Shown: piece after piece, positions 5,651 through 41,347 of the stretch | How the letters are laid out: every line of letters starts with the position of its first letter | Position numbering within the stretch: position 1 is the stretch's first letter | Assembly (NCBI GenBank): GCA_044892525.1 | Contig: CM097887.1 | Span: forward strand, 112,694,397 to 112,758,396 | Reading direction: 5' to 3' | Source: Schmidtea polychroa | Lineage: Eukaryota | DNA length: 64,000 nucleotides | Notes under the pieces: model-generated | Databases searched by the model: none | What the model was told of the DNA's origin: nothing | The model's input: the letters and a program-made list of their open reading frames with translations, nothing else | Made by a program: the position numbers and the translations under genes

Positions 5651-6542
5651 TTGAGAGGAGAGCCCGAAAGGTTCGACGATTTTTTCACTGAAATTTCTCA
5701 ATTTGCAGAGGCCTGTGGTTGGACACCTGATGAGTTAAAAATGAGAATCCCATTATATTTAAAAGGATATGCATTACAAGCATATAACAATTTTAAGTGT
5801 AAAGGAAATAATTTTGGTCAACTCGTAGGATATCTGAGAGCAGAAATAGTAATTGATAGCGATTTACAAAAGATAAATGTTCAAAAATTCAGAAACAGAT
5901 ATCAAGGTACTAGAGAATCAGTTGGTGAATATGTATATACAATTACGGAGGCATTTGGTGCAGGTGAGCACACAACAAAATTAATTGAGGACCAGTTTTG
6001 GAATGGTATACAAAAATATTTATATAAAGCATTAATTATGGTAGAATATAGTAATTTAAATGAATTAGTTCATAAAGCTAAGCGTATAGAAGCAATACAA
6101 CGAGACAGATTTAGCTCACATGTAGATGCAATGGAAATCCAAAAGCCCATAGAGGTAAAATCTGAGTTGGGTAAGTCAGATGACAACATCCCCTGGGAGG
6201 AGATGAAGCAACTATATTTCAACTTTGTAAAAAATAGACGAAGGGTAAGCCCGAGTCCGGATAGAAGTCAATCGTCTGAAAACAGGAGGAGATTTGATAA
6301 TGTGAGAAACAGAATTTTTGAGAGTAGAAACACTTTTGATAGTGATAATCGATATGAATATAATAGAAATAATTATACGAGAGATAATCGAGGCGATTTT
6401 AGTAGAAATAATTTGAGAAATAATAAATATGATAGAAGTAATAGGTATGATAATAGAGATAATACAAATGATTTGAGACGTAGACAGACAAGTCCATATA
6501 AACAGAATTCATAAGGAGAAATGCGAGGAAGCCCTTATAATA

Positions 6543-7868
6543 CAGGGTTTTTCAATATTTAATCCACTTTTCAAAATATTTAATCCTCTTTTCAAAATAT
6601 TTAATCCTTTCAAAAAATTTAATCTTATTTTAAAAAGACCCATAAATGAGAAATAATATTACTCTTTCAAATGACATTAGAAGAATAATTTGCCAAAAAT
6701 ATGAAGCGGGAAAGACAGCAATTCAAATTTCAAAGGATTTAGAGCTCAAGTATAAAACAGTAGTATCTGTTCTGAGAAAATTCAAAACCGCCAGCAAAAT
6801 TGATTCGGAAAAATCAAAGACGGGTAGAAAGAAAGTACTGAGCCTTCCTGCAATTTCATTAATTAAAGAAAAGATAGGTGAGGATGTTTCGATAACTTTA
6901 AAAAATATTAAGACAGCGCTGGAGCACGATTTAAATATTTCGGCGTCGGTTTCATCAATATTTAGAGCTATCGATAATTTTTCATATACTTTTAAAAGAC
7001 TCTCCTTGATTCCCGAAGCAAGAAACAACACTGCGAATATTGCAAGAAGAAAGGAGTATGCCTCACAGTTTATGCTTTTAAGCATTGATAACGTGGTCTT
7101 CTTGGATGAGATGGGCCCCAATTGCAGCATGAGAAGATCATATGGGAGGAGTTTAATTGGGACAACTCCAAAAAAAACCGTGAGATCCATCAGATCTAAA
7201 AATTATTCGATATCGGCAGCAATCACAAGACAAGGAATTTTTCACTTCAAAATACAGGATCATGCGTATAATGGTATTGACTATCAATCTTTTATTAATA
7301 ATTTGATCACAAGATTCGAAAAAAATGGGCTAGAGAATAGGATTTTTATAATGGATAATTGCTCTATGCATATGGGTATAGGAGTAAGATCTTTAATTGA
7401 AAAATCTGGTCATTCTTTAATTTTTCTTCCTCCTTATAGTCCCCAACTAAATCCCATTGAAGAGCTATTTTCAGTATGGAAGGGGCTAATTAAGGCGAGA
7501 AATTGTATGTCTGTTGAAGAGTTATATGACTCCATTAGAACTGTCCATGATGAAATATCGGCAAGAAATTGCATTTCTTATTATGATCATATGCTTTCTT
7601 TTATCGCCAAGGCATTAAGAGAGGAAGATTTTTAATTAAATAAAATATAGTCTTATATTCTTGATTATTTACGAATTTTTTTTTGCCTCACATTGATTCC
7701 GAAAATATGATTTAATATTTCGAAATAGGATTAAATTAAATAAGATTAAATAAGATTAAATAAGATTAAATTTTTTGAAAGGATTAAATATTTTGAAAAG
7801 AGGATTAAATATTTTGAAAAGTGGATTAAATATTTTGAAAAGAGGATTAAATATTTTGAAAAACCCTG
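6543..7868 (+). mobile_element. Intact IS630/Tc1 DNA transposon with TA target duplication
   Basis: Ends CAGGGTTTTTCAA... / ...TTGAAAAACCCTG flanked by TA at 6541-42 and 7869-70. TIRs are built of ~21 bp units TTTTCAAAATATTTAATCC(A/T)C. Confidence 0.95.
6646..7635 (+). CDS. Tc1/IS630 transposase, DD34E, 329 aa
   Basis: Uninterrupted ORF with HTH N-terminus and VFLDE / IMDN / PPYSPQLNPIE; 34 residues between the second D and E. Confidence 0.95.
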   Translation: MRNNITLSNDIRRIICQKYEAGKTAIQISKDLELKYKTVVSVLRKFKTASKIDSEKSKTGRKKVLSLPAISLIKEKIGEDVSITLKNIKTALEHDLNISASVSSIFRAIDNFSYTFKRLSLIPEARNNTANIARRKEYASQFMLLSIDNVVFLDEMGPNCSMRRSYGRSLIGTTPKKTVRSIRSKNYSISAAITRQGIFHFKIQDHAYNGIDYQSFINNLITRFEKNGLENRIFIMDNCSMHMGIGVRSLIEKSGHSLIFLPPYSPQLNPIEELFSVWKGLIKARNCMSVEELYDSIRTVHDEISARNCISYYDHMLSFIAKALREEDF

Positions 7869-8353
7869 TAATGATGATAGAGATAAAGTAAATTTTAATG
7901 GACAGATCAGATGTTATAATTGTCAAAAATATGGCCACTTAGCTAAAGTGTAATAATGTGCGAAGCGAATCGCCTAATAGAGTGAGATTTAAAAATGAGC
8001 CTGAGATGAAACAGATAAATAGTTCTGAGTTGATATCAGCTAATGACGAAATAAATAGTTTGAGAGAGGAACTAAGAGAATTTAAAACTCAATATGGGAG
8101 ACTTATTGAGAGAAAGCTAGAAATGTCATTGAATGAGTTTCAGTGTTTTAACAATGATGTAGATATAGATAATGAGGAGTTTCGAGAGGCAAGAGAAGCG
8201 GATGAAAAATTTATTGCAGAAGCAAATAGATGTAAAGAATTAAAAGAGGAATTGAAAGATGATAATGAGACATTGCGTATAATAAATAGAGTTCAAGTCG
8301 ATGGAATTGACTTAGAATATTTGAGAAACTTGATACCACTAATGGTAAAGAGA

Positions 8354-8484
8354 CAATGATGATAATGACAAGAGTATTTGAATTAGAAATAGAATTGAAA
8401 GAAATGATAAAATGTTATGGTAACATTTTATCATTTCTTTCAATTCTATTTCTAATTCAAATACTCTTGTCATTATCATCATTG
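8354..8484. repeat. Perfect 64 bp inverted repeat with 3 nt loop
   Basis: 8354-8417 is the exact reverse complement of 8421-8484 (loop TGG), checked base by base. Confidence 0.97.
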
Positions 8485-8935
8485 AGACGAGGTAGAGGAA
8501 GGCCTCGAAAATCTGAAATAGCCGAAAAGTCAGATGGCAGAAAGGCAGCAGAGCGTTTAAGAGATATTGCAAATAATATGAGACAGGAAGTTCCAAAAAA
8601 TCAGGATAATGACAAAGATATAAAAATGATAACGGAGTTAGTTAAAGCAATGAATATGAAACGATTTCCGGAAGCAAAACCATCAGCGTTAATAAAAAAT
8701 ATAGTTAAAAAGATTAAATTAATGGAAAAAGAGATTAGAGAATTGAGTGCAGAGGAAGCGAATGAAGAGACAGTGTTAAAGATATTATTTACAACAGGAG
8801 TTAATAGAGATAAAGTGATTACGGCGATGGCATATTTAATAGGAAGATACAAAAACTTTTGCGAATGAATCCAAAGAATCAAATAGAAAATATTGCTAAA
8901 ATGATATATAATAAACTAAAGATAGATGCTATGTC

Positions 8936-11218
8936 ATGGATAAAATTAAAGGGGGATGGAAAATACTGTATGATGAGAGTCTAATCAAAAGTGCTCAGGA
9001 AAGCGTAGAAGATAATATTAATGTAGAAATAGATGATACGGAGAAAACAGTAAAAAATCTAGTAAATAAAACAACTATGAGACCAGGTCAAAAAGAAAGA
9101 AAGTCGACAATGTCAATAGTAATTATAGTAATAACGTTATTGTTAGATCTGATAAAAGGAAACAATGCGATCATAGCGTATGACTGTCAGAATCCCAAGT
9201 GGGGACAAAAATATTCATTGCTGGATGTAGAAAATTGCCCAGAGGCTAATCCAACCAAATTAATTGTAGCAGACCCCAAAATTTTCCATATATATCAGGA
9301 ATCTGACTTCATTCACACAGAAGCAGGAGAATGTATCGTCAAATATTCAGAGGAAAGTTTTGTGTGTAACAAGGTGGCAAGAACAATATTAACCCCAACA
9401 TGGGCACCAGAAGCAATAATAATAACGCCAGTTGAATGCGAAAATGCATTTAAAACAAAAAAGATAAAAACGCCAGGCGGGTTTGAATTAAATGCGCAGG
9501 TGGGAGCACGAGTAAGACAATTAGTAAATGTTGTCGGATGGTCATCAACAGGAGGATATTGTCAAGGAGGAAAATACAAAATATGGGGTCATATGGTAGA
9601 CGATATTGTAGTAAGACGACAATATTATATTGAATTAAGAAAATTCAAAGCGTAATTCGATAGTTCATCAAGGAAAATTATGACACATAAATTCTGCACA
9701 CTAGATGAGACAAGCTGCGATACAGGCGAATCCATGATTATATATAAAGTAAACAAATACGAATGTCATCTAACTAAGCTAAAGACACTGAAATTCAGGA
9801 CGATACGAGGTAAACAATTTACGGATGTAGAATCCAAAAACATTAAAGACAAAAAACGGCGAGCAACGATAATCCAAGAGAAGGATACCAACGATATACA
9901 TGGCAGACTCAGAAACAGAAGCCATGAGATTTGTAGGGAAAGGTGAGAGTATTAAATGTGGTAAAGCAGTGATAAAGACAAACTATGAGGGTATATATAT
10001 ATCAGTGGAAGCGAGATCATGGAAGCAAAGTCAAAAATAGATCAATTCGATGTTAAATTAGCGTCATATTTTAACAATAAAATCGATTATTTTTATCATC
10101 ACCAATTAGTACAATTAGATAAAGTGTATCAAGCAACCATTGCAAGTGATTGTAAACTTAACAGAGAAATACTAAGAACAAAGATGACGGTTGCAGTCAC
10201 AAACCCAGATCTAATGGCACCAATTTTATTTGCAGAGAAAGGTAGTAGTTGGGGGAAGTGATACAAACATTTCAGTGTAAACCTGTCAGTGTATCATTAG
10301 CAACGCATAATAAATGTACAAACGAGTTACCTGTTGTGTATTAAGGAGAAACCGTATATCTCCAACCAATAACAAGGATATTAACAGACAAAGATTATGT
10401 TCCGAAAAAAATTGATAAATGTACTAATCTGTTAGATCCGTTATATAAGATAAACGATGATATGTGGATTACAATGTCGGACAGAAAAGAAGCGACTAAA
10501 CCACAAAAACTCGAATTAACTGAGCTTGAGAAAAAGTTAGAATTCCAGGAAGTTAACGAAATGGATAACAATGGGATGTATACGAGAGAGGCGATAGAAA
10601 GCGCCAGGAAACATATGTTATTTCCTCATGAAAAAGAAAAGGTTCTTTGAATTATGGTAAATAAAATCATCGAGAATAGTTATGGAGGGAATTATAACTT
10701 CGATGTGTTACTATCAAAAGAACACTTTAAGAAAGTTGTATATAAAGTGTTATATAGTATATGGGAATATTTTGCAATTCTTGGAAATACATTTTCAAAC
10801 CATCCTAGGAATATATTATACAGTAGCATTGCTTAAAATGATATGCTCATCATTGGTTTCGTTGAGACAATTGAGACAAGTTTTTGGCAACTCATACAAA
10901 ATGATGACATTTTTATGCCCATTCATAGCTAAATATTTAATTACTGGGAAACATGACAAGGAAATCAAACAAATGAAAATACTAAGAGATGAGAAGGAAC
11001 CAATGATCAACAATGAAAAAGAGGACGATACAAACAAATTTGAAAGTACTGAGCCACAAGTTGGGTTATACGATAGTCAAAGAGAGCAATTGAGAGAATT
11101 GGGAAATAATATGGAAGTTAGAATCCCAGGTGAAAATAGTAATTGCCATTGTGCTTCAAGGAAAATATATGGATGCTATGGATTAGAACTTGATGAAATA
11201 TTAGTGAATTTAAACTAA
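8936..11218 (+). pseudogene. env: Envelope-like glycoprotein, chuvirus (Jingchuvirales) G-type, several stops and frameshifts
   Basis: Signal peptide then AYDC..SLLDVENC; DCKLNREIL; GEVIQTFQCKPVSV...CTNELPVVY.G...LQPITRIL; GMYT...LFPHEKE; hydrophobic TM segment near 10760-10930. Confidence 0.8.
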
Positions 11219-13020
11219 GCCAGACCGAAACTTAAGATAGTTATTAATAGTATAATAATAAACGCACTATGTGACACAGGCGCAGCAGCTTCTATGATCA
11301 GGGAAGATCAGTTAACAGAGAATCAGAAAAGAAACATATCAAGTACAAGAGATAAAGTCATCTCATTATCTTCACATTGTATACCACTAAAAGGTGATAT
11401 TGAACTAACAGTCCACTTTTCGGATCAGGTAGAACATGTTTTCAAGGTAGTAGCTGAATGTAAGTGTGTATGTATCTTGGGGATGGACATACTCAGTAAG
11501 TTAAAAAATTGCGTAATTGATGTGGCAGATAGTAGAGTTACGCGGAAAGCAATACATCGAGACGCTAGATTTTCAGAAGTAGTTGCATTAGAAACATTTG
11601 AATTAGAATACCAAAGTGATCATATAATCCCAGTAAAGGTCAATGTCAAAAGTGAGGACACTTTTATTTTTGAACCTGAAACGGCATTAACAAGAAATCA
11701 TAATATAATGCTAACAAACGAGTGTGTGGTGCCAGAAAAGGGAGTGATACCAATACGAATTGCGAATTACGAGAGAAATAAAGTAAAAATTCATAAAGGT
11801 ACGAAACTGGGGAAATTGTTCAAAGGTGAACTAGAAAAAACATTGGAAGTATGTGAGGTGTCGATAACGAGAGATAGCAGTGAACGAGTGGTCGAACAGA
11901 GTAGAGCTAATAAAATTAAATTGTATGACAAAATTAAAATAAATAATAATTATTTAAACGAAACACAGCAATTACAGTTACAAATATTACTTGATGAATA
12001 TAACGATGTTTTTGCAAAACACGAATTTGACTTAGGAGATACTGATATAATTAAACATGTGATTGATACAGGAAATGCTAGACCAATAAAACAGAGACCC
12101 TACAGTGTACCATATAAACTAAGGGAGGAAATAAAGCGACAAATTAAAGAATTAAAAGAGGCAGGTGTAATAAAACAAAGCTTTTCACAGTGGGCATCAT
12201 CTATTGTACCAGTTAGAAAGAAAGATGGAGAAATTAGAATGTGCATTGATTATCGTAAATTAAATGACGTAACAGTAAAAGACTCATACCCATTCCCAAA
12301 AGCACAAGAACAATATGATAAACTTAGAGACACTAAATATTTTACAGTAATAGATGCAAATAAAGGAAGAGGGAGATGCGGAAAAGACAGCTTTTGTGAT
12401 AGAAGATGGGTTATATGAATACACAAGATTACCTTTTGGGTTAACTAATGCGCCAGCAACATTTCAACGTTTAATGAATACAGTATTAGTAGACGTACAA
12501 CATTGCGCAGTATATATGGATGATATATTAATTTCATCAAAAACATTTGAGGAACATCTAAAAGATATAGCTAACGTACTAGAAAGATTAAGAAAAGCTA
12601 AAATCAAAATAAAACCCACAAAGTGCAAATGGGCGGAGCCTTCAGCATTATTCTTAGGACACATAGTTACTGTAGACGGCATAATACCCAATCCCGATAA
12701 AATCGACGTAGTTAAAAAGTTTCCAGTACCAAAAACATTACAACAAATACAGGGATTCTTAGGACTTACAGGGTATTATCGTAAATTTATACAAGATTAT
12801 GCAAAAATAGCAGCACCATTAATTGAATTAACTAAGGGAGTTAAAACAAAGGGTGAAAGCAAGGGGGTATTAATAGTACAGGAGATAAATGATAAAATTA
12901 GTAAACCCCAAAAAAATGGAAAGATGAACATCAAAAGGCCTTTGATCAACTAAAGGATAAATTAATAACAGCACCAATACTAAGATATCCAGACTTTAAG
13001 AAACAATTTATCGTCATGAC

Positions 13021-13760
13021 AGAAGAGGCATTGGAAATTTATTACGAAAATCCATCAATGAATCAGTTCTGTGTGTCCAAACGCGGATTTGTAAAGATTT
13101 TAGCGTTGGCTCAATATCAAGCCAATAACAAATACAAACTAATAACGATTCAGTTCCCACCGAAATTCATCACAGCGGCTTCTTTAAAATCTATGTACAT
13201 TAAAATCGAATCCGACAATGCGATGGAACAAAGGAAACATATATGCGGAAAGCTTGACGAACTGCATGCATGTGATTGGAAACGAAAGCTGTGGGGACGA
13301 AAATTACATTTATGGAAAGCGGACTAAGACCAATTATATTATTTGTGGATCTGTTTTTTTTGCATGGAAAATTATTTGCGCTACTTACCGGAATTTGCGA
13401 ATGGAGGTAATTCGATTGGAGCTTCAGAACGATATGAAACTAATTGGAGCTCTAGTATCGAATGGAAACGTGTAAAGAAATCAAATATGAAAGATTCGAA
13501 GATTAATTGAAAATGTTCCTGGGATTTGGTGGAGAAATTAATATAGATTTATATTTTAGGTATTTTGCTTATCAGTATTTAATTTGTGTTTAGATTTTCA
13601 ATATTTTTAAAATCAACTTTGGCGATGCCATCATTTTGTTTGAATGTATTTCTGGTTGAATTTTCTTATTTGGATCAGATATAATATTTGACACGTTAGA
13701 TGAAATGAGATTTAAAACTATCTGTCATTAAGAACCAACATAATTTTTAAAATTGGCAGT
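13021..13760. other. Unrelated ~740 bp segment replacing the DAS..GAVL motif of RNase H
   Basis: pol reads QFIVMT, breaks, and resumes at QEEEKGKDYVIAYAS. Confidence 0.6.
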
Positions 13761-13886
13761 CGTGACATCATACCTCAAGAAGAGGAAAAAGGTAAAGACT
13801 ATGTAATAGCTTATGCAAGTAAGACATTAAAAGGAGCACAGATTAGGTACTCAACAATTGAAAGAGTGTTATGCTATAGTTTTTGC

Positions 13887-14059
13887 NNNNNNNNNNNNNN
13901 NNNNNNNNNNNNNNNNNNNNNNNNNNNNNNNNNNNNNNNNNNNNNNNNNNNNNNNNNNNNNNNNNNNNNNNNNNNNNNNNNNNNNNNNNNNNNNNNNNNN
14001 NNNNNNNNNNNNNNNNNNNNNNNNNNNNNNNNNNNNNNNNNNNNNNNNNNNNNNNNNNN
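13887..14059. other. Assembly gap (173 N)
   Basis: Run of n characters inside the RNase H region. Confidence 1.
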
Positions 14060-14582
14060 ATAAAGATACGTCGAGTAGATTATTAAAATGGGCAATGAAG
14101 ATACAAGATATGAACATAAAAATTGCATACAAACCAGGTAGAATAAACCGAAATCCAGATGCACTATCACGAATTCCTGAGTTAGGAGCACTTGAAGTAT
14201 TTGTACCAATAACAGAAAAACCCATAGAGATATACGAGGAACAGATGAGAGACCCGGAACTCTTCAAGATAAGAGAGAAAATAAAAGGGGGAACTAATCA
14301 GAAGTATAAAATTTGTAAAAAAGTGATTGTCATTGAAGACTTTAGCGGTAAACAGTTAATAGTAGTACCACAAAGACAAATTCTTTTAGTACAATATCAT
14401 GATGGAGATTTAGGGGGTCATTTATCAAGTAGGAAAACAGCAAAACCACCAAATTAGCAAGACCATTCAAAGGACCATACGAGGTAGTGAAAGTCGTACA
14501 AGAGAATTTACACCTACAAAAACATAAAAACGAGGATCCCATAATAGTACATGTTAATAGATGAAAGTGAGAAGAAACAGAG

Positions 14583-15464: not shown

Positions 15465-15578
15465 AAATAATGTAAACAATTTCTATTGGTCAATGATAAG
15501 ATTTAAACTCACATATATTAATATTATTATTTATATTGAAGCGTATAAGGTAAAGCCTCAAATGCGCTGTAAATATGT

Positions 15579-17467
15579 ATGTATATTGTCTTTTTAGAAA
15601 AATTCAATCCAACAATATCAGAATCAATCCCAAACAATTCAACCCTATGCAACGTCCAGTCCAACAATACAAAAATCTACAAAATAAAATCACCAATCAC
15701 CATCAGAAGTTTCCCTAACCAGGTCTGCATACCTAACGAAATGAAGTGCGAAATCGAAGAAAGAGAAATGCACTTAGTCAAATTTAATGAAGCCCGAAGA
15801 ATAAAGCTGAGAGATATAATAGGCACCTATGATACGTTCGAAAATGCAGACAGCAGCAAGTGAAGGAAGAAAAGTCCCACGTAGAATGCTGTTCCACATG
15901 ACCAGAACTGAGGTCTCATTATGTCAACAACAAATTCCAATCATAACAACGAGCAACTGCACGGTGGTGATCAAGACAATGAAAACTAATCGAAGCGTAC
16001 CAAACGATTTCAACAATTTGGTCATTCAAATGAACAACTTACCCTGTGTGATGGCAATAGAAATTCTATACGTTCCAACTATACCCAACCCTTTCAAAGA
16101 ATTAGATATGATACAGTCAGAAATCATAATACATGAAGATTTCATCTCAAAACGAATGTCATTCACACATCAGCAGTTGTCAATCCCCGAAAGACAAAGA
16201 GCAATCATGTTCGTCGATGTCAAAGAGGTATGTGACATCAACAACAATCTTAGACCAGTCGAGATATACATTAGAAATTTTAGAGGGAAAATTGTGTACA
16301 ATAAAAAGGTGACTCCACGCACCAAAATCCAACACTATTACCCAGAAAAGACAAGAGCAGACAGAGATTCGATAAGAGGAAATGAAGATGAATATCAAGC
16401 ACTAATCGATATACAGAAGCTGCTACTAGGAAAAATCATTGTGGGATACGAAATAATAAAGAAACTCAAGACGTTGACATTAGATCTGTACAATGTCATG
16501 GGAGTCAGAGAGTTAGCTGAAGATGTGTTCATGTGTTCATTTGTAAAAAATGTAGCACCACACAGAATCAAATTGTCAAATCTCGCATATAAAGTAATCG
16601 CAGCACACCCAAAATGGAAGAAAGACAAAGCAATCAACAACATCCTCAAAAAACCCGAACCATTCTTAGCAGAAGATACAACATTAATCGCAAAAGTCAT
16701 TTACCTCATAGTCGAAAAGCAATGGGAAGAAGTCATAAGGTGGGACATGACAGCATTCCAAAAGGATAATAATGGCCATCAACTCATTCCAATAGAAGAA
16801 AACAGCGATGAGTCAGAGGAATTTGAGGAAGATATATATATCGAACCCTCACAAAGAGAATTAAAATTCAATAAAGACGGAAGCAGACGTACCTTTGAAG
16901 ATGAACTAATGGACAGTGATGATGATATCATATTCGTCAAGGAGGACAAAAAACCACAATCAATCACAATCAAGGAAGAACCTCAGGCATCAAGTAGATC
17001 CACGATGTGATTTGGACTCGGATGAAGAATATTTCTCACCGGACGAAGCAATGCAGGTAGATGACGAACTAGGACCAGAGCCAAATGTCGAGTTGGAGGA
17101 GCCAAATTTCATCATTAAAGAGGGAAGATCCACTATTTCGGAAAAGGAAATACACCAACACTTCGGTAGACGAATTATTGATGGTGATGTGTTGAAATTG
17201 GCATTGAAAAAAGGATTTCAGAGGGCAACAATGTACATAAACGGCTGTGAAATAGAATTGGTCCTCATCGATAAAGGTAATGAGGACATTACTTTATCGG
17301 CCCTAGGAGTGTTGGATGACAGAGGAAGGAGAATTAAAGAATTTGAGCTGACCCACTATTATAGAACGGCCAGCAACAAATTTAGAGTAAACATATATGT
17401 GGAGCCTAAACAATCAAATCAGCCAGATGAGCCAGATCCTTCAAACAATTCAAAACATTTATATTGA
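15579..17467 (+). pseudogene. Accessory ORF (two frameshifts) containing a REXO4/ISG20-like DEDDh exonuclease domain, apparently non-catalytic, plus acidic tail
   Basis: FVDVKE..IYIRNFRGKIVYNKKVTPRTKIQHY...IQKLLLGKIIVGY...LKTL...IKLSNLA...LAEDT aligns by eye with the ISG20/REX4 pattern. Confidence 0.65.
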
Positions 17468-19849
17468 CAATTATGTGTAATAATTTACTTTATTTGTGTT
17501 GACTAAATTCATTCGTGTTATAATGTATATTTACTTTATTCATGCTGTGTTATTTATTTATCTGTACATGCTAATTACGGAAAAATTGAATGTTTATGGA
17601 GAGGCTAATAAATTTACTTTTAATGAATTGCTAACCCTGTGAGGAATCAAAGGGAAAAATAATGCTTAAGATACTTGAGAATAAATAAAACCATTACGAT
17701 TCATTTATTTAGTATTTGTTATGCAATTAATTGGATATAAAAATTTTCGCTAAAGCTTTTTATTTATAATATGGTTTTATCTATTAAACACCAAAATTTT
17801 ATAGAAATACGTACCAATTATATTTTTTAATATATATTTTGGTACAAATAATATTTATTAATCTTTGTTTCCTATGGTTTGATGATAGTGTATAATACTA
17901 CAACACTATGTTACTATGGTTTTAACTCAAAGTCCAGAGCATTGTATGCTGCGCTATATGACAACGGAAAGCTAATTTGGTTGTTTTCAACAAAGCTTAT
18001 CTTTAATTTGGGAAGAAGTGAACAGTTTCTGACAACTATAAAAAATATTTTCAAATGAGTTCATGCAAAAAACTCAACTCTTTATAAGTTAGCTTGTTCT
18101 ATAAAGCTCAATATTTTTTCAAATTTTTATTTATTCCCGAATGAAATGATTTTAAATTAAAATGTCGAACCATCGAATGTAATTGAGTTAGGGGTGTCGA
18201 AAAATCGAAATTCGTTATAAATGCAAAAATACAATTTCGTTAAATAGGCGAAAAATACTTGTAATTTGGTAAATACAAAATGAAGACTCAAAAGTACACA
18301 CATACTATGATGCTGACTTTAGTAACATACAATTAAGTTGAACTCAAAGTGATCTCAAAACATCCAGAATGAGTTCTTGTTACAATCCTAAATAAGATCC
18401 TGTGAAAAAATTATGCACAAGGCTAACCTCTAATTATAACAATATTAAGTTCTTCAAAAATGAACTTCGAATGACATTTGGGTACTTTCCTGTTAATTCA
18501 TCGAAATTAAATTTTTTATTATTCAATTTATATGTCAATATTAATTTGCGATAAAATAACTATTTGACTTTAACCTAATGAAAGCAGTAAATAATTTTTT
18601 ACAAAAGCACGACGTTGTGCGAAAAATCGTCTTTGTGGGTTTAAAGCAAATGGATCGACATGATCGTTGGAGTTTCCACCGAGATACTTGCAAGCAAGAC
18701 AGTCTTGTATGGAAATGGACGTGGCAGCAGGGGTCACGACTAACATACAGACAAATGATGCTTTTCATATATTGCTAATCAAAGGAGTTAACTAGAATAT
18801 CATCCTATTAATCAGAATTGAAATGTTGCTCATTTTCACTGCTAATTAATTTAGTTATCCTCGGCTAATCAAAAACAACCTTTGAAATCGACAATGGCCT
18901 CTTCACAAGACAAAAAAAAGATTTCTGTCGAGCGACCTTTACCGTGAGTTTAATGAATGTGTAATGCTCTATATAGATAAGCGATAATATACTTAAAGGA
19001 ACAACAGCTATTTCAGATAAATTACGTCTATACAATTCTATAATAATACTTTCAAGTTGCAAACCTCTTATAGTTAATCAATATTTGAAATTTAAATACC
19101 AGCACTGGTATAAATACACAAAAGATAGAGAAGTCTTGGAAAACAGTTATGAACGCAAAAAACGTCACATATCGAATTCATTTATGCCGAAAAAAAATAA
19201 AGTTCGTCAATTGAATATATTCGAAGCTGTTTTGCATAATCATTGTAAATTCTATAATAATACTTTCACTTAATAAAGACTTATTTTGTATTAATATGCC
19301 ATTATATAAATCTTAATAAATAATTAACAGGTACAGCTATATATTGTAATAATCGCTTAGCAACTTATAAAATTGCAGTGAAGCCACGTTATCAAAAAAA
19401 CACCAATCCATATATTTCTTATGTTACACTAGAATTAATTCTCGAAACAAAATACATGAATATTAAAAGAATAATTTATTAAGATGCCTTACGGAACATA
19501 TGTATCAATCGATGAAAGTGAAATTGATGCGATTAAAATATTTTGGCTATAGTGAACTATATTATTAAGAGGTACTGATTTTTATAACTAAATTTTAATC
19601 AAAAATTAATTTAAAAAATAACAAAATTGCAAATACTTGTTTGTCTTAACTATTTAAAAAATATTCTGTACTCATTTTGACCTTTATTGCTTCATAGAGA
19701 ATAATATTATAAAAAAATATTATTAATTAAGCATGTATTTTTAATAAGCATGTAGAATTAAAGACAATAAAATGGTTAATCCAAAAAAAATTTAATAAAA
19801 CCAGTTATTTGCGAAAAGTGTGGAAATTTCTGTGAATTAAAAATATTGT

Positions 19850-22636: not shown

Positions 22637-22751
22637 AGTTATGTAAAGTTTTGTTTAAATAATATTCGTTGTAGCGTGTTTTTGAAAAATATATTTTATT
22701 GAATTATTATTGATTTATTTTATGAATTTAGAAGTTGAAGACATCATAACT
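22637..22751 (+). repeat. 5' LTR (115 bp, AGTTATG...CATAACT)
   Basis: Matches 27084-27195; 7 bp terminal inverted repeat. Confidence 0.95.
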
Positions 22752-22763
22752 GGCGACCACGCC
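22751..22763 (+). promoter_or_regulatory. Primer binding site TGGCGACCACGCC, overlapping the last LTR base
   Basis: TGG start directly at the LTR end; tRNA identity (possibly Ser) not verified. Confidence 0.8.
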
Positions 22764-22805
22764 AAGGAAATCAATGCGATAGGGAAAAAGAAAGGAACTA
22801 AGAAT

Positions 22806-23969
22806 ATGTTAGATTCCTTGTCAAAACAAGCACGTGAGATGCTAAATTTTAATGTAAGAAAGTTTGACGGAAAAGTTGGATCTGAAGCCGAACTTTGGCT
22901 AAAGGATATTATGGAATGGCTGAGAATAGAAGATCAAAGTCTAGTAGACGCATTGGATCTTTTGTTGACAGATGCGGCATCGATGTTATGGGATGCGGCG
23001 AAAATGGCGAAGATGACCGATGAAATGGCAAAAGAGTGGTTTATAGAAACTTTTACAGTAAGGAAACCCATTACTAACAAGATTGTGGAACTAGCTCAAA
23101 TTCAGCAAGAGAGAGATGAAAGATTCCAAGTCTTCGAAATACGAGTAAGAAGTTTAGTTAAAAGTGTATTTAGCTCTGTAATGTCTGATGAACAGATTGT
23201 TCGAGACATTATTTCAAACAGAGCGAAAGACGATAGAGTAAAAGAAATATTCTTATCAGGGAAAGTGACAAGTTTTGAAGATGCCAGGGATATGGCAAAA
23301 ATTCAGGAGAAGATCGAGATGACGAATGACAATAAATTCAATATTGATGCCATAAGAAGAGACTCTTAAGCATCAGTGATGAAAAATGGAAAATTCGAGG
23401 GTAGACGAGACCAAAGAACAATTGTGAAGACAACTGCACATCAACGCGACGAACACCGAGAGATTAATCATGAGAGGAATAGACCTGGTAATGGTCGGTT
23501 TGTACCAATTGTAAATGAAGACAAGAATGAAAATGAGCGGTATAGAGGACGATATGAGACAGGAGAACCAGAGAGAAGAATACCTACAGTATCGCTTAAA
23601 GATATTGCAAGAAGGTTATTTAATGACAGCAAGGGAAGAGATTCGCCTCATCCAGTGAAACTAACACCAGGTCAGTGTTTTTGTTGTGGAGAAAAAGGGC
23701 ACCCGCGTTTTGAATGTCCTATGAAAGACAAATGTCTAATCTGTGGAAAAGAAGGTCATGGATTCAGAGATTGTTTTTTGCTTAAAAATAGAAATGGATA
23801 TCAGAAGAGAGTGGCATGTATTTACGAAGAAGATCACGAAAGAAATAATGGTGATTTCACAGAAGATTTATACAGTAATTACGAAGAAACGATAAAAAAA
23901 TCAATGGATAAACCAAAAAACAAGGACGATCCCATTGCTTTCATTTCGTCAGTGGGGTCGACACAATAA
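22806..23969 (+). pseudogene. gag: gag with two CCHC knuckles and one in-frame TAA (23367-69)
   Basis: KFDGKVGSEAELWL capsid motif; CFCCGEKGHPRFEC and CLICGKEGHGFRDC; both ORF pieces are in the same frame. Start codon approximate. Confidence 0.9.
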
Positions 23970-26900
23970 TCAGTAGAAAGAAGCGAAATGAAGACATGAT
24001 GCAGAAGATGTATGAGACGACTGGCAAAAGAAAGTGGAGTAAGATTGTAATAAACATGACGGCGATTGACATGCTTTGGGACTCTGGAGCGTCAGTATCA
24101 GTTATGAGTGGAAAAAGTTGGACAAAGATCGGGAAACCGAGGTTGAAGCAGAGCACAATTTCTCTTTGTGGAGTATTTTCGACGGGAATGGAAAGACCGT
24201 TAGGAGCAATGACGATAGATGCTGATTGGAATGGGAAAAAAGAATTATTAATGTTATAGTTGTCAAAGATATACGTCCAGATTTCATTGGGGGTGTAGAT
24301 ACAATGGAGAGATTTGGTATTCAACTGGTAGAGGTGGACAATATTGAAGCGTCACAAGTAGGGAGGACATATGTGGACTCACAACAAGAAGAGAAAGCAT
24401 TATTAATGCTTGGAGACAGGAAGAATGAACAGTTAGACATATTGCTACGGAAGTTCAAAGGTATTTTTATGGCTTCAACTTTTGATCTCGGGTTTACGAA
24501 AGTTGTTCAGCATGAAATGAATATAGTAGGTGGGCCTGTAATGTTACAGCCAAGAAGACAACCAATGCATTTAGAACAAAAGCTTGACGAACTTGTCACA
24601 AACTTATTAGAAGCGAGAGTTATTAGAAAATGCAAAAGTGCATGGAACGCGCCACTAGTAATTGTGGCTAAGAAAGATGGATCAATACGGATGTGTGTCG
24701 ACTATAGAGGGTTGAATGCGATCACTGAAAAGATATCTTTGTCAATGCCAGATAGACGATTTCTACTGGATTGTCTGGCAGATTCAAAATATTTCACATC
24801 CATCGATCTAGGTCAAGCATATTATCAAGTTGGAATGGCGAAGGAAATTCAAGAGGTCACGGCTTTCAGTACAAGGCAAGGACAGTTTTGTTTTAACCGA
24901 CTTCCTTTTGGACTAGCAACCGCCCCTGCGACGTTTCAAAGAATGATGCACTCAATGTTGGATGGAATATTATTTAAGGGTGTTGTTGTCTACCTCGACG
25001 ACATTCTTGTCTATGGAAAAGACAAAGAGGAGCACAATAACCGATTAGAGGAAGTATTCAGAAGAATTCAACTAGCGGGGTTGAGAATTAACCCAGAAAA
25101 ATGTAATCTGTATAAAGAAGAATTTACATTCCTAGGGCACACTGTAAGTGCAAGTGGGATCAAAACGAACGACAAGAAGATTAAAGAGATTCAAGATGTA
25201 GAAATACCAGTATGCGCCAAACAATTAAGATCCTTTTCAGGTAACACCAATTACTATAGGAAGTTTATAAAAGACTATGCGAAAATTGCGGAACCTCTAC
25301 ATGCAGCTACGTCCGGCTGTGAGAAAAAGATTAATTGGTCAGAAGATTGCAACAATAGTTTTGAATTACTTAAAACAAAGTTGTGTGAAGCTTCAATTCT
25401 AGATTACCCAAGAATGGATAGAAACTTTATTCTGGATACAGACGCTAGTTTTGGGGCTATCGGAGCAGTTTTATGTCAAGCTAAAGAAGATGGTACTGAA
25501 GTGGTAATTGCATATGGGTCGAGACACTTGACCGCACATGAAAAAGGTTATTGTGTGACTAGGAAGGAGTTACTTGCTATACACGAATATGTAATGTATT
25601 TTAAACAATATCTATACGGAAAGTCATTTGTAGTACGAACGGATCACAAGGCGTTGGTTTTCATGAGATACACAAAAAAACCGATAAGCCCGCAATTTCA
25701 AACCTGGCTAGCCAACCTTTCCGGATATGATTTCGATCTTCAATATAGGAAAGGAGAGGAACATGGAAATGCGGACGGAATATCAAGGATTAAAGGGATG
25801 TTATGTGCACAATGCCAGACTAGACATGAAGACGCAAAAGAAGAAAAAGCCAGAGTAAGACATATCAGCTCATTACAGAAGACTGAGTCGATGACAAAAC
25901 TCTTAGAAAAGCAACAAGATGATGTAGATTTCATTCACATGACAAGAGTGTTACAGGGAGAAGAGAAAAAAGATGACTTGAATAAAAAGAAATTTCCTTT
26001 CAATTTGCATAACAACATAAAATTAGAAGATGGGTTTTTATTATTAGAGAAGAATGGTAAAGATGTCATCCTGGTGCCGATAGACTACTCAAATACGTTA
26101 GTTAAAGGAATACATACTGAAATGTGTCACATTGGAGTAAAGAAATTAATTAGCTATATGAGCAACATATTTTTTTGGCCAAACATGCAAGAAACTATAC
26201 AAAACTGTTTGCGAGTATGTGAGATATGCTGCAGAAGGAAAATAGTGCAGGAGAAGACAAAGGAACGATTGTTGCCGATAATAAGTTCAGAATTTTTAGA
26301 ACAGTTGGTCATTGATATAGCACACATGAAGAATGGTGGAGTGTACAAGTATATGCTAGTTATCATTGATCGTTTTAGCAAAATGGTCAGTCTGACCGCA
26401 CTGGAGAGACAAGACGAGAGATCGATTTTCAAAGCCATATTGGAGAAGTGGATATACCGTTTTGGAAAACCGCGAAATTGTCTGTCAGACAGAGGGAAGA
26501 ACTTCGATAGTGGTTTTATGAAAACAAATCTAGGAAGACTGGGTATTACGCAACAGTTCAGTTCACCATATCAGCATCAATCTAACGGTTTAGTTGAGAG
26601 AACAATACGGACAGTCAGAGACTTGCTGGCGACATCATTAGCAGGTGGACTAGGAGAGCGAAATTGGGCGGAGTTACTTCCTCGAGTAGGATTTTGTATC
26701 AACGTGACACAACAGAGCGCGACGGGATTTTCTCCATTTGAAATTGTTTTTGGGAGGAAGATTAACCTTCATTCAACATTGCCTCAGACGACATTGGATA
26801 CAGTTGAGATATAGATTGGTAAGAGAGAACAGTGAGAAAGCAGCTAAACGAATGAAAGAGATGGAAACAGAGAAGAGAACGAATCGATGTTTCACGGTGG

Positions 26901-27073
26901 GGGAGAAAGTATTAGTTCGGAAAGAACCACAAAATCGCGACAAAGATGGACTACAGTATGAAGGTCCGTTTGTCATATCAAAGTTTTTGTCAGAACACCA
27001 GGTGGAATTGAGTGACGGGACGACAAAGAAACTTAGACGAATTGAATGGCTTAAGAGATGGGCAGTTCCTTAA
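23912..27073 (+). pseudogene. pol: pol (PR-RT-RH-IN, GPF motif) with two single-base frameshifts (~24240, ~26810)
   Basis: LWDSGAS; YLDD; TDASFGAIGAVL; HTEMCH..C..C; IDI/SDRG/NGLVER; EGPFVI. No chromodomain. Confidence 0.95.
23915..23960 (+). promoter_or_regulatory. -1 ribosomal frameshift signal (A_AAA_AAC plus downstream stem-loop)
   Basis: Heptamer at 23915-21 is in the gag frame, the -1 frame is open from 23912 into the protease, and CGATCCCATT/AGTGGGGTCG pairs 5 nt downstream. Confidence 0.75.
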
Positions 27074-27083
27074 AGAAGGGGAG
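27072..27083 (+). promoter_or_regulatory. Polypurine tract
   Basis: AAAGAAGGGGAG immediately before the 3' LTR. Confidence 0.9.
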
Positions 27084-27195
27084 AGTTATGTAAAGTTTTT
27101 AAATAATATTCGTTGTAGCGTGTTTTTGAAAAATATATTTTATTGAATTATTATTGATTTATTTTATGAATTTAGAAGTTGAAGACATCATAACT
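27084..27195 (+). repeat. 3' LTR (112 bp)
   Basis: Matches 22637-22751. Confidence 0.95.
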
Positions 27196-35218: not shown

Positions 35219-35975
35219 TCAATTTGCCATTAGTATGATATCAGCCCGATGGTCGTGACAGACAGAGATTATGCATTCTCCATCAGCAAAAGGAAGATTT
35301 TGGCTAAGAGCCCAACCATACAGATTATTTATATCAATATATAGTAATTCTGTATTATCAGAAGCAGCAACGTAATGTTTGTTAACAAATGTTAACCCAC
35401 CACGTATTCCTCCTTCGTAAAAATTGAACATTTCCATGTCCTGTAAAAGTTCTATAGGCTCAGTTAATGTCATAAGCGCTGAGGCCCATGACATACCCGG
35501 AATACCATAAAAGTTTAGAGGTTCTAGACCATTGTATGCAATGGCCTTGGCACGGAATTGTTGGAAATAGTCCGCAATGAGGAATACATCCAATTTTTGA
35601 TAAGTTAACATATAGTCAGCCAATTTAGTACAACGTTGTTGAGTCCAAATAAGTTGAGCCTTAGCATACTCATCTTCAGTAACACCAGACCAAATAGGAG
35701 GCAATTCATAAGTGGTTTCAAGTACATCCAAATCAGTCGCATAATCATAAGGAAATATGGCTTTAGCATCTATTATTAGCCTATCAAAAACCAACGAAGT
35801 CAAAGGAAGATCAGTTAGAGTTTTTACAGCCTTAGCCAAAGAACAATTAACAAATTGCATGCTGTCGATAAAACGAACAGCTAATTTTTTAATGTGAACA
35901 ATCATGAAAAGTTTGACAAACGAACTCAAGAATTTGGAAAGGCTTGTGGTGCTTCGCGTTTTCTTTAGCAGATAC
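35219..35975 (-). pseudogene. Protein-primed family B DNA polymerase fragment (Polinton/Maverick type)
   Basis: RFIDSMQF..SL..V..L; LDV.LIADYF..FR; LEPLNFYGIPGMSWA; IELLQD....EGGIRGG; LYIDINNLYGWALSQNLP. Truncated on both sides. Confidence 0.9.
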
Positions 35976-35989
35976 TTCAACATTTTAAA

Positions 35990-37214
35990 CGACAGCGGGG
36001 GAGATAAAGACAATAAAGACGACAATAATGACGAGAGAGACCGAAATGGGAATAAAGAGGAAAAGAAATCAGAGGAGAATAATCAAAGGAATAACGACTC
36101 AAGTACAGAAAAGGAGGAGAACACCCACGGAAACCGAACAAAAGAAGAAAAATCAAACAATGGAAAACAGAGGGTATGCCTACCTTTTACCAACAAGGAA
36201 ATAGAGACAAATATAATATTAATGATAATTGTACTGACCATGATAGAGTTAGTAACAGCCCACGGAGGAACGAGAACGATAAAGGAAACTAAGGTAGCCG
36301 AAAATCAGGACAGTAAAGAGGAAGAATTAAAACAAGAAAAGAAAAAGCAAGTACAAGAGCAACAGTGGGAATTAAAAGAAGAATGGGGCCTAAAGGAAAA
36401 GTGCATACTAGGAAGATGTATGTCTAGAGCGTATCAGAGATTAGTACTGATAAACGAGGACACAGAACCGATAACAGAAGTAAGAATACAAGAAGCATAC
36501 CGAAATCGAGACGGGAAAAGAATAACGAACGTGAAAGGAAAAGAGGTGCACCTAGGAAAAGGAGGTGAAGTAGTAATAACACAGCTCCAACCAAGAAAAG
36601 AACACAAAGTCTGTATTTCAAGATTAGGACCGGGTGAAAAATGCCATCAATATGTGACACAACAACAACCCCCAAAAAAATACACGGTTTGTCCCTGGAG
36701 GAACGAATCAAAAAGGGAATGCCGACGATACCCGGGGAAAAGAGGGAAGAAAAGAAAAAACAACGACGAAAAGGACGAAGGAGGAAAACACAAGAAAACC
36801 GGCGAGGAAGCTCAGGACAACTATGTTTCGGAGGAAGAGATGGAAAAAATACAAAAGATGGCAAAGGAGGGTATGAACGAGGAAATAGCAAGAATGCGAG
36901 AGATGATGAAAGGAAATGGGAAAAGAGGAAACGAGAAAAGTACAGAAGCGATATCAACATTAACAAACGAGGAAAAACCAGAGAGTATAAGCGTAAAGCA
37001 GATGATGTGGATCAGTGGGATAATAATAACAGGGGCATTTCTAATCATAACGGGGGGAACAATAAAAATAATTAAAGATAAACGACATCGCGGAGAACTG
37101 GAGATGACCCGAATCAGAAATTTCCAACATCGAGTGAAACGACCAAGTGATATCAAACAAGAACAGTGGGTGGAGGCCTGGAACGCTCAGCGCCCTCCAA
37201 ACTCACGTATATAG
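35990..37214 (+). CDS. Charged leader, signal/TM segment, FN3-like domain, charged stalk, TM, tail (5' end lost at the junction)
   Basis: IILMIIVLTMIELVTA; GGEVVITQLQPRKEHKVCIS...KCHQYVT; TM MMWISGIIITGAFLIITGGTI. Confidence 0.65.
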
Positions 37215-37374
37215 AAAGGAATATGACTGTATATAATTGTAAAAAGTAAGTATCTTTTATGTATATAACAGTACTATATCTTTATATAAGCGCGGTATCA
37301 ATATTATAAAATAACGGGGATCATAAAATGAAATTAACTTTAGATAAGAGTTGAAAAGTGTATATAAATTAAGA

Positions 37375-37734
37375 ATGGAGCAAGGAAATAACGAAATGAA
37401 CCACAACACAGTAACTGAAGAATTATGGAAGCAACAATGTGCCGTATTAGCACAATTAGTGTCTAATTTGCAAGAACGAGGACTGACGATGCAAAGGAAC
37501 CTAATCGAGAGTATGAACAGAGGATTTAGTTATTTAAAAATAATTGAAGACCAGAGGTTAAAAATCGAACAAATGCAAAGAGAGATAGAGAGGATAACCC
37601 AATATAGCCGAAGACAGGAAATCGAACTAGAAAGAATGATGGAGGAAGCAGAACAGACAGAAATGGAAGACTGGTCAGAATGGTTAACGAACAGGGGAGA
37701 GGGCGGACACGAAGCCGACTCTTCCGAACCATAA
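37375..37734 (+). CDS. Hypothetical coiled-coil protein, acidic tail
   Basis: 119 aa ORF from ATG 37375, heptad-rich, bounded by AT spacers. Confidence 0.6.
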   Translation: MEQGNNEMNHNTVTEELWKQQCAVLAQLVSNLQERGLTMQRNLIESMNRGFSYLKIIEDQRLKIEQMQREIERITQYSRRQEIELERMMEEAEQTEMEDWSEWLTNRGEGGHEADSSEP

Positions 37735-37819
37735 ACCAAACCTAAATTAAAATGTAAATAATTGTAAATAAAATATCGAACCTGTATCGATAAGAACTAT
37801 ATGTATATATAATTATAGA

Positions 37820-39208
37820 ATGGATAAACGACAAAGAGAAGAGTTCAGAGAGATCGTCGAACAAGTCAGAAAATCTACATCGATCAGAATACACAAACAT
37901 GTTATGTGCGGAATATGTGAAAAGTTGCTAAAGGAACCCCACCAAACCCTATGTGGATGCAGATTATGTAAGGAATGTATCAGTGAAGCAATAAAGAATA
38001 GACCACAGTGGTGCCCGGTGTGTAAAGAGACACTAATATCGAGTCTAGAAGACACTAACGAGGATAAAGCCGCAGTGAAAGACATGTTAAACACCAATCT
38101 GGGATGTAAAAATACCCCATGCGAGTGGAAAGGAGTAATATGGAAAGTAATGCAACATATGGGAGAATGTAGGTACAGAGTCGGCCATTGTGAAAGGTGC
38201 CATAAAACCAGTCGAGCAAGCGAAGAAAAAGAGCATCAAAGCCAGTGTGAAGAGAGACTAGAATGATGTGAACATTGTGGAGAAATAGATACGTGGAAAA
38301 ATCTCATCATCAAACATCACAATGTCCAAGAGGAAAAGGTATGTGCAGAGTTCAGTGGGGAATGCCTGAACGGATGCGAGGAAGGGAGAATAATAAAAAT
38401 AGCCCAACACCTAAAGGAATGTGAAATGAAAAGAATGACATGTGTACTAGGTAAATGGGGCTGTCAGAAACTACTACACCGAGGAGAGTTACCACATCAT
38501 TTAGTAGAAAATGCTTCAACCCACGCAGAAATGTGGTCGACTGCGTTACAAGAAAGTGAAGAGAAAGTAAAACAAATGGAGATAGAGATAACATCGTTGA
38601 AAGTGTTAGTCAAAGAACTACTAGAAGAAAGAGAAGCGTTCGAAGAAGCTCGGGCAAACATAAAGATGCAAATAAATCGTATAGAAATCAGCAATAATCA
38701 GGCCAAGGTGCTACATCAAAAGATAACTGAGATAAATCTAAATGAAGTAATACCAACCGCACCCTACGTATGGAAAATAACGGGAGTAAAAGAAAGAATA
38801 CGAAAAGCAAAAACCGGAGAAGAAACAAAAATAACGAGTCCCGCATTCCAGTCTTGGAAAAATGGGTACAAAATGAAAATGAAGATATATCCCAACGGGG
38901 ACGGCACCGGATTAGATACACACTTTTCGGTTTTCTTTCTGTTATGCGAAGGGGAATACGACGAAATAATAGAATGGCCGTTCCAGGCGAAGATCGACAT
39001 CGCACTAATGAACGACCGAAACATCCACGAACAAAGCTTCAAGACGACGGGAAACCAAATGTGTTACCAGAGACCTACGGAAGAAGAAGGATCAGCAACG
39101 GGAGCGCCTACGTTCATTCTACAACAAAAAGTAGAGGATATGGCGAGAAATGACACAGTATATATCAAGATGACCGTGAGGAAAGAGGGGAAGGGTAGAA
39201 CAGAGTAA
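37820..39208 (+). pseudogene. Intronless TRAF-family protein (RING, TRAF zinc fingers, coiled coil, MATH), one in-frame TGA at 38264-66
   Basis: CGICEKLLKEP.Q..CGCRLCKEC....CPVC; CKNTPCEWKG; WKITG..SPAF..GYKMKMKIYPNGDG.G..THFSVF..LCEGEYD.IIEWPF. The two ORF-track pieces share a frame with 53 open codons between them. Confidence 0.92.
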
Positions 39209-39402
39209 CCAATCGAATAATGTGGTATATAATAATCTGTATATATCGATGTATATAACCAATAAAATATTATATAATAATAGTATGAAAAACCCTAAAT
39301 ACGAAAAACCCAAAAATGATGCGAAAAATTTCCGAAGAAACAGTAACTAATGAATAAATTTTTACCATAATAAAAAGATTAATCGATATCTATGATTTAG
39401 AA

Positions 39403-39744
39403 ATGACACAAGAGAAAATAACCGAAACTACGATAGCCCCAACCAATACCAACAAGACACAAATTCGCCGAGAATATAGCGAAAAATGGAACAAAGTAAT
39501 GTTCCAACTAACTAACCTCACCCGAAATTACATCGAAGAAGCTAGAGAAGATGAGAACAGTAAATATCAATGGCTAATACACAATTTAAGAGAGGAGGCT
39601 GAATCGTGCAAAAGAGCGTCGAAATGGGCGTCATTAGAAAATACCCGCCAAGAAGCGCACAGCCACTACTTGAAACAGCTGGTGCAGGAAGCGAGAAAGA
39701 GGCTCACTGACGAAAACGCAAAACGCGAAGCGGAAAACAAATAG
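39403..39744 (+). CDS. Hypothetical helical protein
   Basis: 113 aa ORF; TTTAG|AAATG context. Confidence 0.55.
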   Translation: MTQEKITETTIAPTNTNKTQIRREYSEKWNKVMFQLTNLTRNYIEEAREDENSKYQWLIHNLREEAESCKRASKWASLENTRQEAHSHYLKQLVQEARKRLTDENAKREAENK

Positions 39745-39755
39745 AAGGAAGAAAA

Positions 39756-40414: not shown

Positions 40415-40603
40415 GCCAGGAGGAAACCTTCGTATAAAAGGGATCAAAAAGATAAAAAACTAAAAATCGGGACGTATATCCCAAACAAAAAAATTAAAGT
40501 ATTGTAAAAGTATTCAAGGGATTGTAACCCAAACTATTAAATTTTATATAAATGTATACGTATAAGTCGCACTATAGCGCACCATTAACTGTACATATTA
40601 TAG

Positions 40604-41311: not shown

Positions 41312-41347
41312 GGGTCACTAAGACCAATTGTAAATAAAACATAATAA

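Follow-up and report, generated by a model that had tools for sequence, protein, structure and literature searches.

Organization of the Element in the Window

The open reading frame at positions 15829–17010 (+ strand, 393 aa) of the window, i.e., of the whole 64-kb stretch of DNA analyzed here, represents the middle part, with a broken frame, of a 3′ accessory gene (ORF2) that belongs to a gypsy element of the Burro-like gag-env-pol type (Table 1). In a preliminary description of this DNA, the ORF was described as retroelement cargo resembling a catalytically dead exonuclease of the ISG20/REXO4 type. The ORF and the motifs quoted for it are present, and its location 3′ of the gag-env-pol polyprotein agrees with cargo of a retroelement. 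The ORF is not the whole gene, which is an ORF2 of ~625 aa where open; frame breaks cut this ORF out of its middle. Comparison with an open natural copy in the TBLASTN program revealed frame changes near 15852 and near 16993; therefore, the first ~8 codons of the ORF and its stop at 17010 are by-products of the breaks. The remnant of ORF2 occupies approximately 15600–17464, and this copy probably makes no full protein. In many other copies, ORF2 comprises 722 codons from stop to stop and ~625 codons from the first likely AUG.

Table 1. Features of the Burro-like element identified in the window.
Feature	Position	Strand	Evidence
gag region, interrupted by a Tc1/IS630-type transposon	5654..8421	+	89–92% DNA identity to natural copy L073 at 5654–6542 and 7869–8421
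Tc1/IS630-type DNA transposon, inserted secondarily and bounded by terminal inverted repeats	6554..7862	+	DDE_3, E = 6e-28; 77-nt inverted arms
env (class III fusion glycoprotein) with a Bcl-2-like stretch before it; broken here	8483..11218	+	PF24664, E = 9e-15 and 3e-9 in window pieces
pol (protease, RT, RNase H, integrase start), broken	11219..14443	+	Pfam RVP, RVT_1, RT_RNaseH_2; BLASTN to L073/L074
Polyprotein C-terminal extension with hydrophobic, membrane-anchor-like segment	14426..15464	+	Translation; 78% aa identity to L074, dN/dS 0.28
Conserved non-coding motif followed by a T-tract/AG similar to a splice acceptor (putative), immediately before ORF2	15543..15597	+	Tract in 8/8 family-A loci with anchor; upstream motif kept in 6/7 aligned loci
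Jelly-roll (double-stranded beta-helix) domain at the N-terminus of ORF2, with a frame break near 15852	15672..16075	+	TBLASTN to open copy; model pLDDT 95.8
ISG20/REXO4-fold pseudo-exonuclease domain (predicted)	16189..16743	+	Family profile, AlphaFold model, motif tallies
Residues at catalytic positions: Asp (kept); Lys; Lys; Phe; Thr	16216; 16222; 16462; 16663; 16678
Acidic tail and C-terminus of ORF2, with a frame break near 16993	16744..17464	+	dN/dS 0.11–0.14
Short purine tract	17305–17309	+	Directly before 3′ LTR
3′ LTR start, shortened in window copy	17310..17500	+	82% over 97 nt to L073 LTR start; match to L002 stops after 191 nt

The general plan was established from natural copies: an LTR, one long frame encoding gag, a Bcl-2-like stretch, env, protease, RT, RNase H, integrase and a hydrophobic tail, then ORF2, then an LTR. 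The LTRs have TG...CA ends and are accompanied by a target-site duplication and a primer site; 4-bp duplications were recognized by eye in three of four copies, and the fourth sits in a TA repeat. The size of the element between the LTR ends is 13–16 kb. In the open copy L073, a single open frame runs from gag through PF24664 (E = 6e-88) to RT, with env in frame between gag and pol. The Bcl-2 match of this copy (E = 6e-5) is under the Pfam cut-off, as are the Bcl-2 matches recorded for family A, to which the window element belongs, and for its sister family B (E from 6e-5 to 6e-3). A ubiquitin domain is over the cut-off in family B and was not detected in family A. In the RT tree, which was built from partly non-overlapping pieces with one outgroup family, the RTs of family A were distinct from those of B/C (47–57% identity).

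Compared with L073/L074 in the BLASTN program, the window pol includes an unrelated stretch at ~13024–13775 and lacks the integrase core. For the gag side, no 5′ LTR was found, and a matching LTR pair is absent within the 64-kb window. The C-terminal extension of the polyprotein shows no Pfam match over the cut-off. A perfect 64-nt inverted duplication with a 3-nt spacer (8354–8484) lies at a deletion point in the polyprotein gene. In family A, the C-terminal part of ORF2 passes through the purine tract into the 3′ LTR. Internally deleted copies without env and pol that retain gag-side sequence and ORF2 were observed as well (L031:2398-6165, L032:299-5317, L047:705-3671, also L079/L080); three of them have apparently the same junction and read through to ORF2 without a frame change (up to 1673 aa), which suggests a non-autonomous subfamily.

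The region upstream of ORF2 contains a TATA-like core and a short inverted pair, kept across subfamilies with saturated synonymous sites and followed by the T-tract and AG. This segment is likely an expression signal, and its sequence would be compatible with an internal promoter, an RNA hairpin or a splice signal. In a sequencing run that we presume to be RNA, contigs covered ORF2 and pol alike, and no joint at the acceptor-like site was seen among the rows listed; this result speaks neither for nor against expression.

Several other features of the window were recorded. At 22654–27195 lies another gypsy element, which lacks env and whose two 98-nt terminal repeats are identical; L078 contains a copy of it with 98% identity. 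An intron-less TRAF-like gene with a stop (37772–39208) encodes RING, TRAF zinc finger and MATH domains; around it lies a strongly A-skewed, ORF-dense block (~35900–42000), possibly cargo of another element. Four related ORFs (44843–47216, 54778–55185, 57219–57983) encode a coiled coil and a basic tail, and a 1.6-kb tandem repeat contains two of the four; the three ORFs scanned gave no Pfam match over the cut-off. The piece at 35219–36082 (− strand) is, as we assume from its motifs, like the protein-primed family-B DNA polymerase of Maverick/Polinton, and ORFs similar to it flank several natural copies (L075, L077, L079).

Domain Structure of the ORF2 Protein

The N-terminal domain, absent from the preliminary description, was seen in the model of a natural 380-residue stretch built from 65 sequences. 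Residues 1–153 form a double-stranded beta-helix, for which the best matches are prolyl-4-hydroxylases (Z 11.8 and 11.4), with Z 11.8 and rmsd 3.4 over 148 aligned residues for 2jij. Ofd2 (Z 10.2) and ALKBH6 (Z 10.1) follow, and plain cupins are close behind (Z 9–10). Viral replicases and 2OG oxygenases were among the matches in the viral structure library. A search with the N-terminal domain gave no PDB sequence match and no usable Atlas match. As for the HxD/E...H iron triad, no HxD/E position is common to the 53 rows aligned; one His and one Glu/Asp are conserved, each in 49 of 53. On the model, the N-terminus of ORF2 resembles 2OG-oxygenases and lacks the iron triad.

The second domain is poorly recognizable in the window protein by itself: the 393-aa sequence has no Pfam match, and its best PDB sequence match is ISG20 with E = 0.34. 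In the Atlas, residues 115–310 were placed with RNase_T clusters at 0.94. A profile built from 28 genomic copies matched ISG20L2 (E = 3e-12) and ISG20 (E = 8e-9). The AlphaFold model from the same number of copies (pLDDT 87.1) predicts a DEDD fold and matches ISG20 in Foldseek with E = 2.7e-9 (TM 0.74/0.81), as the preliminary description had supposed. Structural comparison placed ISG20 first (Z 20.4, rmsd 2.6 Å over 162 residues) and Pan2 next (Z 16.2), with RNase D in 40th place (Z 9.6). The family-A domain contains a 13-residue insertion before ExoIII. The RNase_T family of Pfam was not matched by any family-A protein and was matched by 33 of the 65 aligned relatives.

Catalytic Positions in Family A and in Sister Families

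The genome search yielded 127 frames with a match, and in 96 of these a single frame covered 85% or more of the domain; after removal of 20 duplicate loci, 47 family-A and 29 B/C places remained. In the 47 family-A copies, the first position of ExoI is acidic throughout (D 43, E 4), the second, normally Glu, is K 44 and R 3, the ExoII Asp (ISG20 D94) is always Lys, the ExoIII His is always Phe, and the ExoIII Asp is T 46 and M 1. The missing ExoIII His and the replaced catalytic residues are therefore shared by the sister copies, and the family consensus is not intact. Since 27 of the 47 copies belong to the subfamily of the window, the weight of this evidence lies in the pattern across subfamilies down to 44–47% identity.

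Two of the earlier motif readings require correction. The substitution in "DVKE" is real; D-V-K aligns with D-C-E, so that the catalytic Glu is represented by Lys and the following Glu is not conserved. The "ED" motif is present but was read with a shift of one residue: the ISG20 counterpart of its Asp is E153, the position is variable (in the 47 copies, D 36, Q 5, H 4, Y 1 and N 1), and Thr occupies the place of the catalytic Asp.

Sister families B and C of the same genome, which the preliminary description did not include, keep the DEEDh motif. Family B was found by a genome search with PF00929; its domain reads D-A-E / GHDLQNE / HSAxED and by itself matches ISG20 at E = 5e-7. Family C is 50–55% identical to B and also high-copy. 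In the 29 B/C places, the tally is D 27 and E 27 for ExoI, E 29 for ExoII, and H 28 and D 28 for ExoIII. The His-Gly loop of B/C is gone in family A, which has a new conserved PEPF motif and a helical insertion.

According to the available text of PMC5388505, the single change D94G abolishes the activity of ISG20, and the HBV epsilon RNA is still bound. Since this change alone inactivates ISG20 and four of five positions are replaced here, family A has in all likelihood lost catalysis. The model and the tallies argue strongly for an ISG20-like fold without two-metal catalysis, and the family-A domain is very probably a pseudo-nuclease.

Copy Number, Age and Selection

At least 150 domain matches in the genome were counted among the matches listed, with 1091 candidates. 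Family A consists of subfamilies at ~97, 77, 68 and 55% identity, plus one near 46%. LTR pairs were found in five of six neighbourhoods (100, 99.9, 99.9, 99.8 and 97.2% identity); as the LTRs are 99.8–100% identical in four of the six, the families are young and recently mobile.

For the motif-less domain, dN/dS was 0.037 and 0.025 in the two unsaturated pairs; in more distant pairs, synonymous sites are at or near saturation. The comparison of the window domain with L073/L074 gave 0.048 (6/432 vs 32/123) and 0.025 (5/438 vs 40/117). Values for other parts of the element in the same comparison were 0.080 (PR-RT), 0.115 (env) and 0.146 (gag), and that for the intact family-C domain was 0.059. 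By this measure, constraint on the domain matches that on PR-RT and exceeds that on env or gag. With dN/dS of 0.03–0.05, the ORF2 protein is maintained, its exonuclease-fold domain being under strong purifying selection, although the window copy is dead, a state that the preliminary description had missed. The same values and the agreement of all 47 copies indicate that catalytic loss is a family trait and not decay of the window copy.

Related Proteins and Origin of the Domain

An exhaustive search with the family-B domain found 1085 proteins at E ≤ 0.001, the best 150 of which were read; word-index searches returned 1, 4 and 4 proteins. In the phylogenetic trees, 58 public proteins grouped with the 15 genomic rows in a single clade, which is separate from REXO4-like proteins of the canonical type (support 1.0 and 99.1). 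These public proteins, known from protein sequence alone, are unannotated, and the jelly-roll plus exonuclease architecture has no Pfam description as a whole. Degraded motifs occur in 15 of the 58, three of these 15 being fragments; other degraded lineages lost the first Asp as well (Ser, Ala, Asn, Val).

Trees of the exonuclease part only grouped the degraded proteins together (support 0.978 and 92.9). A 335-column tree with masked motif columns (57 rows after eight short ones were dropped) placed them in at least four places. The AU test of a single origin gave p = 0.0105 (strict) and 0.049 (one intact row allowed inside), with constrained searches shorter than the free one and 5000 replicates. 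A single loss thus appears to be rejected, with these caveats, and the alignments suggest that catalysis was probably lost two or more times.

Among host DEDDh genes, we take L049 to be ERI1-like, L132/L133 to be an intact REXO4 with an intron, and L134 to be a further REXO-like exon, judging by motifs. The host REXO4 is intact, intron-containing and 50–62% identical to canonical proteins, with 25–31% identity to the B/C cargo. Recent capture from host REXO4 was rejected on this comparison; since the host gene is close to canonical proteins and far from the B/C cargo, the capture is old. It seems quite probable that the capture of a REXO4-type exonuclease by an ancestral element took place long ago, that the enzyme was then fused with the jelly-roll domain, and that catalysis disappeared more than once.

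Possible Function of the Motif-Less Domain

Because the cutting residues are replaced in every copy examined and the domain is nevertheless under selection, it may bind RNA instead of cutting it. We tentatively propose, with slightly less than an even chance of being right, that the protein binds the RNA of its own element without cleavage. Lysines that have replaced metal ligands would take over the part of the cations and grip the phosphate backbone; the element RNA (its 3′ end or a stem) would thereby be capped or covered and shielded from host exonucleases and silencing factors, and active relatives would trim or destroy such RNA. A polyanionic ligand is pointed to by lysines at two ligand positions, by the repeated replacement of ExoI Glu by Lys/Arg (6 of 11 other degraded proteins, with Glu in 34 of 34 intact ones) and by the net charge, which is +4 to +11 in nine family-A representatives and on average −0.4 in 34 intact-motif cargo proteins. 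A precedent for binding after loss of activity is the D94G form of ISG20. Against the argument from charge, canonical REXO4-like domains average +4.3, the B/C domains have +1 to +7, and four of the 11 other degraded proteins are net acidic.

RNA binding by ISG20 needs ExoIII, as reported in the available part of PMC5388505. This is the most remodelled part of the family-A domain (His to Phe, Asp to Thr, the 13-residue insertion and the lost His-Gly loop), which speaks against a cover for RNA, and the aromatic residues replacing two histidines could merely close the pocket. The decoy suggested in the preliminary description is unlikely in the form of a decoy of ISG20. The closest gene of the host is the intact REXO4, with its low identity to the B/C cargo; ISG20 is an interferon-induced gene (PMC5388505, available text), and interferons are described as known in jawed vertebrates only (bioRxiv 10.64898/2026.05.30.728932, available text).

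According to the first rival explanation, a rather unlikely one, the dead domain is a protein-binding scaffold or decoy that binds a host partner (e.g., a REXO4 cofactor or client, or a silencing factor) or positions the jelly-roll, with no RNA contact. It would account for the pocket histidines replaced by Phe/Tyr, for the PEPF motif and helical insertion, and for replacements that differ among degraded lineages (charges −7 to +11); the polyprotein carries other host-interaction domains (Bcl-2-like, ubiquitin), and in human PML a DEDDh fold is retained that is dead and for which no role as a nuclease was demonstrated (PMC10123124, available text). Lysine at both former metal ligands in all 47 copies and the recurrent Glu to Lys/Arg change fit a polyanion better, and the low identity to host REXO4 is at odds with close mimicry of this protein.

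The placement of ORF2 is like that of foamy-virus tas/bet and HIV nef. A trans-activator or RNA-export factor for the LTR of the element, with the acidic tail as an activation region, would suit this placement, the overlap of the family-A gene with the purine tract and 3′ LTR, and the conserved upstream motif, which suggests separate expression. In addition, two elements are 97% identical over gag-env-pol and 67% over ORF2, so that ORF2 and the LTR have been exchanged as a cassette between elements with nearly the same pol. Physical linkage alone explains such a cassette, however; the family-B gene ends ~2.4 kb before the LTR, and copies with 95–97% identical domains have LTR starts that often align over 100–300 nt only (best segment only). 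We consider this explanation improbable.

Still less probable is a functioning enzyme with a rebuilt site, in which the kept ExoI acid and the lysines would support one-metal or metal-free catalysis. The acidic first ExoI residue of all 47 copies and selection as strong as on the intact family-C domain agree with it, but the D94G change alone abolishes ISG20 activity, four positions differ here, and the first Asp was lost in other degraded lineages. Decaying baggage with substitutions as pseudogene damage has a negligible probability: the window copy is broken in ORF2 and polyprotein and many genomic copies have stops or short frames, but the motif tallies, with the same replacements across subfamilies as low as 44–47% identical and with saturated synonymous sites, and the dN/dS of 0.03–0.05 contradict decay for the family, so that it is true of the window copy only.

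The proposed binding of element RNA may be part of a broader scheme, which we consider unlikely as a whole. The envelope-bearing retroelements of this group would have in common an ancient protein for RNA handling, with two domains (a 2OG-oxygenase fold lacking the triad and a REXO4-type exonuclease) and two states: the active one would destroy silencing-triggering RNA, and the pseudo-enzyme, reached several times by change of metal ligands to lysines, would cap RNA. The arenavirus nucleoprotein is thought to destroy RNA that would trigger silencing. If the scheme is true, the element encodes a protein that suppresses RNA surveillance by the host, and its two states occur side by side in one genome; in animals, few cases are known in which an element encodes a means against host RNA surveillance. 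High-copy, recently active families of one genome that carry an intact-motif or a motif-less gene, each under selection, represent a natural paired experiment, which bears on the need of retroelements for an exonuclease fold and on the origin of pseudo-enzymes.

Comparison with Known Systems

The Burro architecture, DEDDy exonuclease cargo of rotifers and dead DEDD folds of host genes are already known from the available texts of the reports cited below. Planarian Burro/GYPSM1 are giant gypsy elements of >30 kb with MATH, BIR and ankyrin domains (PMC6431247). In these, in the flatworm GAG-ENV-POL errantiviruses (PMC13524379) and in the elements described here, gag and pol enclose an in-frame env; a mononegavirus-like fusion protein and many young copies are also shared. 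Of the Bcl-2-like and ubiquitin-like domains that precede env in the known elements, the former was seen here under the cut-off in A and B and the latter over it in B. The architecture suggests that the host is a planarian. Burro sensu stricto differs, as the elements described here are 13–16 kb long and MATH, BIR and ankyrin domains are absent from the scanned polyproteins. The env of family C (L083) resembles, by eye, the "Smed_errantivirus_1" env row in the supplement of PMC13524379.

In the available main text and seven supplements of PMC13524379, the word "exonuclease" occurs 0 times, and in that of PMC6431247 it is used only for rotifer Terminons. In the literature covered, including the available texts of PMC6431247, PMC13524379, PMC8532177, PMC6338049 and PMC7968707, we found no mention of Burro-like elements that carry a gene of the REXO4/ISG20 type, nor of the jelly-roll that accompanies it or of lineages without the motif; Repbase and Grohme et al. 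2018, which lie outside this scope, may annotate ORF2.

A parallel on the side of cargo is provided by bdelloid rotifer Juno/Vesta LTR elements and Athena/Terminons, which have a captured DEDD exonuclease, a 3′ accessory ORF3 and the change of DEDD to DEED as in B/C (PMC5408684, available text). The rotifer ORF3 protein is RNase D-like, of the DEDDy type with intact residues, whereas ORF2 encodes a REXO4/ISG20-like DEDDh domain with a jelly-roll, motif-less in some lineages; intact relatives of family A carry the ExoIII His, unlike the DEDDy type.

Human ISG20 (PDB 1wlj), ISG20L2 (7yw5) and REXO4 have the same fold and the same order of strands and helices as the ORF2 domain, which differs in its 16–18% identity to them, four of five changed catalytic residues, the 13-residue insertion, extra domains and being element-encoded. 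Loss of catalysis with retention of the DEDD fold is seen in Exuperantia (5l80), with Z 10.5 to the family-A model, and in amniote PML (PMC10123124); Maelstrom and EXD1 are host DEDD pseudo-nucleases with reported RNA binding (PMC5408684). All four are host genes of other DEDD subfamilies, and none is transposon-encoded. Finally, a fold of the 2OG-oxygenase type occurs on a retroelement or virus in the AlkB/2-ODD cargo of orchid gypsy elements (PMC9289625, available text) and in viral AlkB; these are active demethylases, whereas the jelly-roll of ORF2 is joined to an exonuclease fold and shows no conservation of the iron triad.
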